Shown here: one piece after another, positions 39,417 to 61,604 of the stretch | Position numbering within the stretch: the first letter of the stretch is position 1 | How the letters are laid out: every line of letters begins with the position of its first letter | Origin: Rhynchobatus australiae | Lineage: Eukaryota | Reading direction: 5' to 3' | Length of the DNA stretch: 64,000 nucleotides | NCBI GenBank assembly: GCA_034780895.1 | Contig: JAUZTB010000033.1 | Span: 10,447,477 to 10,511,476 of the forward strand | Notes under the pieces: generated by a model | Databases searched by the model: none | Told to the model about the DNA's origin: nothing | What the model saw: the letters and a program-made list of their open reading frames with translations, nothing else | Position numbers and translations under genes: made by a program

Positions 39417-39443
39417 CTGGGCCCAGCTGCCCTCTTCATCATC
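39417..39443 (-). CDS. PPFIA1: 27-nt microexon (DDEEGSWAQ)
   Basis: Upstream TTGCTTTTCTAACTGCTTTAACATCAG acceptor, CAG|GTGGGC donor, phase 0-0. Homologous to ESEEGSWAQ of liprin-alpha-2. Confidence 0.9.
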
Positions 39444-44689: not shown

Positions 44690-44701
44690 CCTGATTTATT
44701 A
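44690..44701 (-). CDS. PPFIA1: Candidate 12-nt microexon (TAATAAATCAGG; changes LKKK-TELL to LKKNNKSG-TELL)
   Basis: Long pyrimidine tract + TAG acceptor, AGG|GTAAGT donor. Phase 2-2 and stop-free in the PPFIA1 frame. Confidence 0.6.
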
Positions 44702-53839: not shown

Positions 53840-53869
53840 CTTCCTACGGTGCTTCCTTAAATCACTAGG
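53840..53869 (-). CDS. PPFIA1: 30-nt cassette exon (PSDLRKHRRK)
   Basis: Pyrimidine tract + CAG acceptor, AAG|GTAATT donor, phase 0-0. Peptide is the PSDLRKHRRK segment known from liprin-alpha-2 and other liprin-alpha isoforms. Confidence 0.93.
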
Positions 53870-57758: not shown

Positions 57759-57982
57759 CTTATTTCATTATTGATGGCATCCAACTGTTCTTGAAGCATC
57801 ATAGCCAAAGTTTGGGCATCAGCCTGACCACTTGGTGAGAGTAAATCGACAGAGCTGAATATCGTCTCTCTATCATCTTCCGCATCCGACACTTCAGCAT
57901 CACTCTCAAAAGCCTGGGCCACATTCGCCAAGACACTGGCTTGTTGTGCACGCTCCCATTCTTGTTCGTTCAAAGTCTGGAC
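57759..57982 (-). CDS. PPFIA1: Liprin-alpha-1 coding exon (VQTLNEQEWERAQQASVLANV...QEQLDAINNEIR)
   Basis: CAG acceptor, GTTTGT donor, 224 nt (phase 0 to 2). Near-identical to the vertebrate PPFIA1 peptide. Confidence 0.97.
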
Positions 57983-58974
57983 CTGTTCATAAAAGTGCAG
58001 TACATCTTGCTCAGAAACAGGATACCAAAATGTCCAATATGAAACCGAGATACAAGGGCAGGAAAGGGCCATTCAACCACATGAACCTCCTTCACCAAAT
58101 TCAATCTAGACATCAATTTCATCTAAGTGAAAATTTAAAAATCTGCAGACGTTGTAAATGTAAAATAAAACAGAAAATGCTAGAAATAGGTCAGGTCAGA
58201 CCACATCTATGGGAAGGAAAAACAGAGTTAACATTTCAGGTCAAAGTCCCTTCGATAGAACCCTTATTATCAATTCCAGACCCTCATTATCAATTCCATT
58301 TTATTCCCTTGGTCCCATAATCCTGAACATCCTCATCTAACAAAAATGTAATCACTTCGCAATTTTCAATAGCTTCCATGTCTCAATCGCAAGATAAGTA
58401 CTCATTACATACAACATTGTTTAAAAAAGTTATAAATTGAATTACTGGGGAAAGGGACCAATCACCTGAAAAGGTAACAATAAAGATGCACAAATGATCA
58501 ATTGTAAATCAAACTACTGGTCAATCTTCACAGAAAACTGAATTTTGCATCCCTTTTGGAAGTATCAATTCATAAGTCTTATTTTGATATCAATACTTGT
58601 AACACGATTTACCAACAACTTAAGTCACGTCAAACAAAATATACAATATAAATGTAGACATTCTTGAGAAGTGCTTGGAAATGGAAAGGAGGAAAATGCA
58701 AACATTAGAATTAAATGTGTGAAACTGGTGCTAACTGGTGAGCAGAAGTTACACTGGTCATTTGTGTTCAGGCGGGCAGCAACTTGGGTCGGACAGTGCT
58801 TACTCAGACTGGTCCCTTGCTTTGGCTCCAGTACTAATCCCCTGATATTCAGAACTATTTAATAATTGTTTAAAAGGATAATTAAAAAAAAATAAAATAT
58901 TTAGTCAAAACACAAACTGTCATAATCTAAAAAGGAGCAAAATAAAGAAAAGTAAACAAACAACTTGAACTTAC

Positions 58975-59183
58975 CTTTGTAAAGAAGGGCAGCAACCCCA
59001 TTCAAATGAATAGGGGTGCTGCTTGTATGCCACCGATGCTTGGCATGAAGCTAAGGGGCTAGATGCAAAATGCATCCAGTCCCTCAGTCCAGTATGATCT
59101 GGAACTGGAGTTCAGGAACACTAGCGTTTCTGCTTTCACACTGTAGTGCACACAAGTTGCTGACATCATAGGGTGGAGGTTCC
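58975..59183 (-). other. PPFIA1: Candidate alternative first exon or poison exon of PPFIA1 (ends ATG-GLLPFFTK)
   Basis: Consensus donor AAG|GTAAGT at 58975. ATG at 59001 is in frame with the next exon and preceded by TGA. Possible acceptor TTTTGCAG before 59183. Confidence 0.35.
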
Positions 59184-59428
59184 CTGCAAAAGCACTGGCC
59201 ACAATGGACCTTAGTGTGGGCCATTATCGGCTACACTAATGGAAGGTTGTGAGACATTACATTTATCCTTCTTTGGACAGATCTCTGCTATTTACCATGA
59301 TAGCAAATTGAAATGGCATAAAGCAAACTATACTTTTAGGTGAAATAAAGTTAAATCACTACTTAACAACTGACATTGTGAAACAATTCAGGATTAAAAA
59401 CTGTGCACAACGCATGAGACAAACTTAC

Positions 59429-59431
59429 ATT
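59429..59431 (-). CDS. PPFIA1: Candidate 3-nt microexon (AAT, Asn) of liprin-alpha-1
   Basis: Minus strand reads ...TTTTCCTGCTGCATTTCTGATGGATTTCTCTGCAG|AAT|GTAAGTTT. About 95 nt upstream lack any AG. Sits in a phase-0 intron. Confidence 0.5.
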
Positions 59432-60238
59432 CTGCAGAGAAATCCATCAGAAATGCAGCAGGAAAAGAAAATAATAATAGTAGCACATCATCAATAGATC
59501 ACAATTAAATGGTACACAACAGAAGTGCACTTCAGTGAAATAGGAGTTGAGATTATATTGCAAAGGGAGTTCAATATTCGCTGGGAAAATATATCATGAA
59601 AGAAATTTAGCAGTAAAATGGAATAATTGGATTGAATATGTAAATGACTGTTCAGAAGGATAGGAGCAACAAAATTAACAGTGCACAAGTACTTAAGCAC
59701 ATAATTTCCTGATGCTGATAGCATTATTTGAAATAATCGAAGAGGTAGTTGAGCAATTAATCACCAATGTCAGGCTTTTCACATTAGATGAAATTAGACA
59801 GGATTTCAAGCAAGCAGCATCACCACAATTGAAAAACTCACCATGAGCAAACATTTATTGGAAACAAGGGATCTAATCTGCATGCACAAATTCCAGAATG
59901 CCAAAATATAGCTATAAATTAAGCTTCTATTTAATATTCTAATAACTGTAAACTATGACGAAAGGCACCAAATGTATTCAAAGTGCTCTGATTGCCAGGA
60001 ATGAAAGAGTGAGTACCCATTNNNNNNNNNNNNNNNNNNNNNNNNNNNNNNNNNNNNNNNNNNNNNNNNNNNNNNNNNNNNNNNNNNNNNNNATCATCAT
60101 TATTGTCCAGAAGGACACACTCACTCAGTTTTAGTTATCCTCCAGATAACTGCGTCCAGCAACCGCAGAGATGTTTCAGCTCAGTGAAAAGTTGTCAACA
60201 GCCTCAAATTTATTTCAAATAAAATTGTGCAGATGCAT

Positions 60239-61456: not shown

Positions 61457-61604
61457 CTTTGAAGGTTCATCTCGTAAAGCTGCCAAGCGGCCCTTCTGAG
61501 TTCTTCGTAACACTGAGGTGCTGCTGTATGGGTCTGGATGGGTGTCTCCCTCTGACGCTGTTGGTAATGGATACCTATAATCTGAGCTGCTACTTAAATG
61601 AGGC
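61457..61604 (-). CDS. PPFIA1: Liprin-alpha-1 internal coding exon (PHLSSSSDYRY...RRTQKGRLAALRDEPSK)
   Basis: TAG acceptor, AAG|GTAAAG donor, 148 nt (phase 2 to 0). Peptide matches human PPFIA1 RPHLGSVPDFRF...RRPQKGRLAALRDEPSK, which points to alpha-1 rather than alpha-2/3/4. Upstream exons lie beyond the window. Confidence 0.95.

Follow-up and report, generated by a model that had tools for sequence, protein, structure and literature searches.

A candidate three-nucleotide microexon adding a single asparagine to liprin-alpha-1 in Rhynchobatus australiae

In an intron of the liprin-alpha-1 gene of Rhynchobatus australiae, a single AAT codon lies between an acceptor and a GTAAGT donor, which raises the question of whether three nucleotides may be spliced as an exon in their own right and, if so, under which control. 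The locus was analysed within a window of 64,000 nucleotides, a term used here for the whole stretch of DNA under study. The sequence and the gene models of other species make it highly probable that this is a real 3-nt exon and favour, with less assurance, an optional exon that adds one residue to liprin-alpha-1 (EPSK-N-VQTL) in neurons under SRRM3/4 control.

Fourteen collinear liprin-alpha-1 matches run along the minus strand of the window, and the host gene is liprin-alpha-1 (PPFIA1), as judged by similarity and by the collinear order of its exons. Non-skate rays gave the top identity among the 10 proteins compared (sawfish, 93%), and the downstream exon matches the liprin-alpha-1 records of shark and ray at 100% identity. 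The upstream exon reads ...RDEPSK up to position 61457, followed by GT, and the downstream exon reads VQTLNEQ from 57982, preceded by AG, in agreement with the initial annotation, which had placed the codon in a phase-0 intron between these two exons. This intron has 3,474 nt, and its downstream acceptor, TGAACAG, is without a tandem AG. The features of the locus are the following, read from the sequence unless otherwise indicated:

61457..61604, minus strand: upstream liprin-alpha-1 exon, ending ...GRLAALRDEPSK
59432..59529, minus strand: acceptor AG and 96-nt AG-free, pyrimidine-rich zone
59455..59460, minus strand: TGCTGC, two UGC motifs (-29 and -26), candidate SRRM3/4 element, its role presumed by analogy
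59429..59431, minus strand: candidate 3-nt microexon AAT (Asn), phase 0 to phase 0, with Asn also in thorny skate records
59423..59428, minus strand: donor GTAAGT
57759..57982, minus strand: downstream exon of 224 nt, starting VQTLNEQEW, in which the single alpha-helix begins

The same intron carries high-copy repeat fragments at window positions 58120-58260 and 59043-59090. A further donor, at 58974, was set aside, as no convincing open in-frame exon could be found for it.

Across the site, the minus strand reads TTTCTCTGCAG|AAT|GTAAGT, in which AAT occupies positions 59431-59429, 2,026 nt away from the upstream donor, exactly as the acceptor and donor one codon apart had been described. A sequencing-run contig spanning 59420-59744 is identical to the window and, given that this independent contig covers AAT without difference, the site cannot be put down to faulty assembly; the CAG|AAT|GTAAGT observation is thus confirmed. 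The AG-free tract, estimated beforehand at about 95 nt and said to be pyrimidine-rich with a TGCTGC, measures 96 nt, with 30 pyrimidines in the 40 positions from -43 to -4 relative to the acceptor AG, and UGC motifs are found at -54, -29, -26, and -5. Branch-point candidates are predicted at -19, -63, -77, and -108. The site thereby shows the size and frame of the microexons dependent on SRRM3/4 (3-27 nt, frame-preserving, canonical AG/GT), being 3 nt long with CAG and GTAAGT at its borders, and it combines a strong donor with a long AG-free acceptor, as judged by consensus and not by MaxEnt score. It also places UGC motifs, those at -29 and -26, between branch point and AG, if their assumed position relative to the predicted branch point is correct.

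Other short exons of the gene provide a local standard for these values. Three of them are found on the minus strand of the window:

53840-53869, minus strand: 30-nt exon, PSDLRKHRRK, matching a neuronal mouse Ppfia1 microexon
44690-44701, minus strand: 12-nt phase-2 exon (sequence), with a 59-nt AG-free acceptor and a GTAAGT donor
39417-39443, minus strand: 27-nt exon, DDEEGSWAQ, matching a neuronal mouse Ppfia1 microexon

The AG-free zone of 96 nt at the AAT site stands against 45, 72, and 59 nt at the 30-, 27-, and 12-nt exons, respectively, and against 21 nt at the flanking constitutive exon, and its pyrimidine content matches or exceeds that of the three short exons. The 12-nt exon of the window accounts for an NNKSG insertion in the skate models; it may correspond to a 12-nt PPFIA1 exon of the chicken retina, GgaEX1045355 (PMC9303857, 12 of its 18 supplements). 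The candidate belongs to the same gene and class as the 30-nt (PSDLRKHRRQ) and 27-nt (EDEEGSWAQ) exons, neuronal in mouse according to table S1 of PMC7821500, and the 12-nt exon of chicken retina (PMC9303857, in part), but lies in a different intron, and none of the known ones has 3 nt.

The bare motif must be set against what chance may produce. The pattern YAGNNNGTAAGT occurs once in the 64-kb window, with 0.70 expected, and this count was reached in 49 of 100 shuffles, so that the motif alone proves nothing. When the host intron was shuffled 5000 times, YAG-NNN-GTRAG appeared in 526 of the shuffles, in 31 when an AG-free stretch of at least 40 nt and at least 26/40 pyrimidines were also required, and in 25 when the codon was restricted to AAY, i.e., to Asn, the residue of the skate models; these figures are descriptive, the thresholds of at least 40 AG-free nucleotides and at least 26/40 pyrimidines having been chosen after the AAT site was seen.

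Further evidence is provided by the gene models of other species, in which an additional residue is found at the same junction. Among 568 proteins, a sample of cluster representatives and up to 15 members per cluster, 181 were without the junction; an insertion was absent from 331, and the inserted residue was His in 31, Gln in 14, Asn in 9, and Val in 2. Asn (EPSK-N-VQTL) is present in 9 of the 14 RefSeq records of the thorny skate, Amblyraja radiata (isoforms X1, X3-X9, and X11, e.g., XP_032894610.1), where X1 and X2 differ solely by N574, and the genomic codon AAT encodes exactly this residue. The 31 records with His come from 12 species (four frogs, a gecko, a tortoise, and six birds), such as Sphaerodactylus townsendi X1 (XP_048339613.1) and Rana temporaria X1 (XP_040184055.1), and the X1/X2 and X6/X7 pairs of the gecko are likewise separated by H574 only. 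The RefSeq "X" isoforms are automatic models, known here from protein records and not from exon coordinates; in comparison with these undescribed one-residue isoforms, which share the junction and, in the skate, the residue, the window supplies a genomic source for the latter.

Among the matches listed, Asn is found in one of the 23 cartilaginous fish species and in one of the nine rays and skates, no insertion was seen in 20 of these 23 species, including eight of the nine rays and skates, and none was seen in the salamander, coelacanth, bichir, or Hucho records. Such absences are weak evidence, given that only representatives and some cluster members were surveyed. The isoform models yielded no usable pattern of co-occurrence between the residue and the other short exons.

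The identity of the residue restricts how it may have arisen. Where exons join in phase 0, slippage to a tandem acceptor inserts a codon whose last two bases are AG, and slippage to a tandem donor inserts one whose first two are GT. Asn and His therefore need a separate exon, and NAGNAG tandem acceptors, which also add one residue, never yield Asn or His in this phase. A tandem splice site (NAGNAG or GYNGYN) was rejected on these grounds, the AAT codon being 2,026 nt from the donor and the Asn and His codons fitting neither rule. On the other hand, the Gln found at the junction in seven of nine records of Stegostoma and seven of 25 of Callorhinchus may reflect a tandem acceptor, a CAR microexon, or a misplaced CAT, and the Val of two bird records is likely to be donor slippage. 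The one relative for which DNA could be compared keeps the site, at a divergence of only about 2.4%, which is uninformative; no change is listed for it between 59417 and 59508, and this identity carries no information either, as change-free gaps of 83-106 nt occur elsewhere in the same kilobase. One substitution in that relative creates an AG, which shortens its AG-free zone.

Another line of evidence comes from the paralogs in the same genome, which holds further liprin-alpha genes on the contigs C80, C65, and C42, and a lone exon on C48. The C80 gene has a twin site, CTGCAG|CAT|GTAAGT (His), at C80:370632-370630 on the minus strand (L023:1631-1633), 1,982 nt past the donor of the matching exon, ...KDDPSK|GT, with an AG-free zone of 65 nt, 30/40 pyrimidines, and UGC at -22. 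This gene is closer to liprin-alpha-3 chains (53 bits) than to those of alpha-2 (48 bits) over 28 residues, in a comparison whose matches include no alpha-1 or alpha-4 chains. The twin was found in a scan of three paralog regions, and 25 of 5000 shuffles pass the thresholds, which in this case had been fixed beforehand. The liprin-alpha gene DNA scanned, 127,781 bases on the sense strand, has seven bare motifs, of which the AAT and CAT sites are the only ones that pass; the two share little sequence outside a 15-nt core. The C80 twin is seen in no protein record compared, a search of 50% representatives returned no liprin-alpha-3 isoform across the junction, and the downstream exon of C80 is masked by a stretch of 4,965 N. 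The duplication of liprin alpha-1 and alpha-3 dates to the early vertebrate genome duplications. As the twin follows the same exon in an alpha-3-like paralog, the microexon is likely to be older than this duplication, which is the simplest reading of the two sequences; the alternative, an independent origin of two sites in the same intron, keeps some probability.

No such site was recovered from the remaining paralogs. In the C65 intron, which is complete, no 3-nt candidate is followed by a consensus donor; a CAG|CAT at position 7349 of L006 on the reverse strand has a pyrimidine-rich acceptor free of AG over 56 nt, but its donor is GTGCTC, and it is probably chance or a decayed copy. For the C42 gene, the upstream exon was not located, which leaves its intron undelimited. 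A single-exon tree grouped C65 with C42 (95/96) without placing C33 or C48, and neither the SAM1 exon nor an Atlas search separated the paralogs. The lone liprin-alpha exon on C48 (C48:43933387-43933611, L002:1501-1725) lies on a piece of about 5.3 kb flanked by gaps, no further liprin exon occurs within 50 kb, and the 4,965 N of the C80 gene sit where an exon of its type belongs; it is possibly a product of mis-scaffolding, no contig overlap having been found to link it to the C80 gap, and a similar split may affect the C65 exons and a SAM exon on C76.

In mammals, the insertion is present in none of 44 named records from 13 species, and the exon has likely been lost or silenced. Mouse Ppfia1 was located in the published tables by locus coordinates that we take to be correct, one of them being confirmed. 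In the available part of PMC7821500, the Ppfia1 rows of the mouse MicroExonator table are of 30 and 27 nt only, both neuronal, and none of its 11 three-base CAT, CAC, or CAA rows (AAT and AAC having no row) falls at this locus. In the zebrafish table, AAT and CAT have a row each, both backed by a single read and both for genes that could not be identified. Table S4 of the 2017 VastDB paper, which holds selected events only (PMC5630039, in part), has eight PPFIA1 rows, none of 3 nt, and no PPFIA3 row. The passages and 12 supplements covered of PMC12626424 have no ppfia entry, and the matches listed from 12 of the 13 supplements of PMC12626420 include only the 30-nt exon and ppfia4. No published description of a 3-nt exon of liprin-alpha-1 was found, although VastDB itself, subscription papers, or bioRxiv supplements could hold one. 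Given this, the earlier view of the exon as probably unannotated stands in so far as no description was found, and fails in so far as the automatic RefSeq models already have Asn (one of 23 cartilaginous fish species) or His (12 tetrapod species). The class to which the exon would belong is a known one, and automatic models of other species already imply the exon itself; it is for its evolutionary depth, its paralog twin, and its apparent loss in mammals that we found no earlier description.

A real 3-nt cassette exon adding Asn, as initially proposed, agrees with the skate isoforms, the His of tetrapods, and the twin site, which together represent its conservation among vertebrates. It is improbable that the site is an unspliced signal, arisen by chance or decayed, with the insertions of other species being unrelated or artefacts: the expected 0.70 bare motifs per window and the lack of the residue in most ray models (among the matches listed) would fit this, but not the match between genomic codon and skate residue (25/5000 shuffles), the His of 12 tetrapod species at the same junction, or the paralog. 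The initial annotation had also considered two other readings, a recursive (ratchet) splice point and the terminus of an alternative first exon, either of which the closeness of acceptor and donor may suggest. Recursive sites have an AG directly followed by the donor GT, in very long introns. Here, three bases separate AG from GT, joining to the upstream exon creates no new donor, the intron has only 3,474 nt, and the residue is internal in full-length models, so that both of these alternatives become very improbable.

A more serious competitor accepts the exon and denies it an SRRM3/4 neural switch, with low inclusion or another regulator or tissue, such as retina or muscle, and little effect on the protein. 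The patchy annotation (Asn in one of 23 cartilaginous fish, among the matches listed), the absence from the mouse, chicken, and zebrafish tables searched, the variable residue (N, H), and the mostly mild or null effects of single microexon deletions in zebrafish, as given in the available part of PMC12626424, are consistent with it. Against it stand the long AG-free zone with UGC at -29 and -26 here and at -22 in the paralog, and the retention across the split of cartilaginous fish and tetrapods, which argues for selection; this explanation seems unlikely, while deserving serious consideration.

The neural reading, which we prefer, draws on the resemblance to the SRRM3/SRRM4 neural microexons (3-27 nt), shared in size, frame, strong donor, set-back pyrimidine tract, and UGC near the acceptor (bioRxiv 10.1101/2024.09.17.613571, in part), as well as in a synaptic host gene and deep conservation. 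The AAT exon differs in being at the minimum size and in its apparent absence from mammals, where most of the others were catalogued. In the accessible text of the same preprint (10.1101/2024.09.17.613571), microexons dependent on SRRM3/4 combine strong donors with pyrimidine tracts lying at a distance from the AG, and 74-79% of them have a UGC, a motif that is neither sufficient nor strictly needed for the SRRM4 response. The genome has two matches over the cut-off to the SRRM_C domain. The AAT codon would be skipped by default, three bases being too few for exon definition, and it would be included where SRRM3/4 at the UGCs, together with the strong donor and the long pyrimidine tract, recruited the early spliceosome.

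The exon would have originated before the duplication of alpha-1 and alpha-3, and would later have been lost or silenced in mammals. Both codons, AAT and CAT, fit the donor consensus at -3 (A or C) and at -2 (A), so that the residue is perhaps fixed by splicing rather than by side-chain chemistry. A wider reading, to which we give somewhat less than even credence, is that of a pre-duplication one-codon exon whose splicing has persisted in both genes for over 450 million years, selected for its length and not for its residue (Asn, His, perhaps Gln), and lost in mammals, hence missed by mammal-centred catalogues.

In the protein, coiled coil 2 (Pfam, 245-491) precedes the residue (574 in the skate), and the single alpha-helix follows about 50 residues past the insertion, the 6IUH match covering 624-655; this helix binds GIT1, according to the available part of PMC8044993. 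In a model of the ostrich His isoform, itself weak (mean pLDDT 51.5, pTM 0.23), the residue falls in a low-confidence stretch, six residues ahead of a predicted short helix, and the linker around it is likely to be disordered. The flanks of the insertion are nearly invariant over 34 aligned vertebrate records, which suggests a binding motif, although no assigned partner was found for this motif of liprin-alpha. The residue would likely act by slightly altering the spacing of a motif for binding or phosphorylation, e.g., a Lys-x-x-Thr pattern.

If this holds true, an exon of minimum size would extend from cartilaginous fish to birds and be common to two duplicate genes, and would offer a clean case for the role of one residue in a synaptic scaffold and for how such exons persist or vanish. 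The surprise is limited, given that the class is well known and that single microexons are often mild in effect. The exon marks the nearly invariant linker of liprin-alpha as a likely regulated interface, and non-mammalian annotations miss or misplace exons of 3 nt. Shark and ray models (four record pairs) also carry a second one-residue variant, HH[S]R, some 50 residues further upstream.
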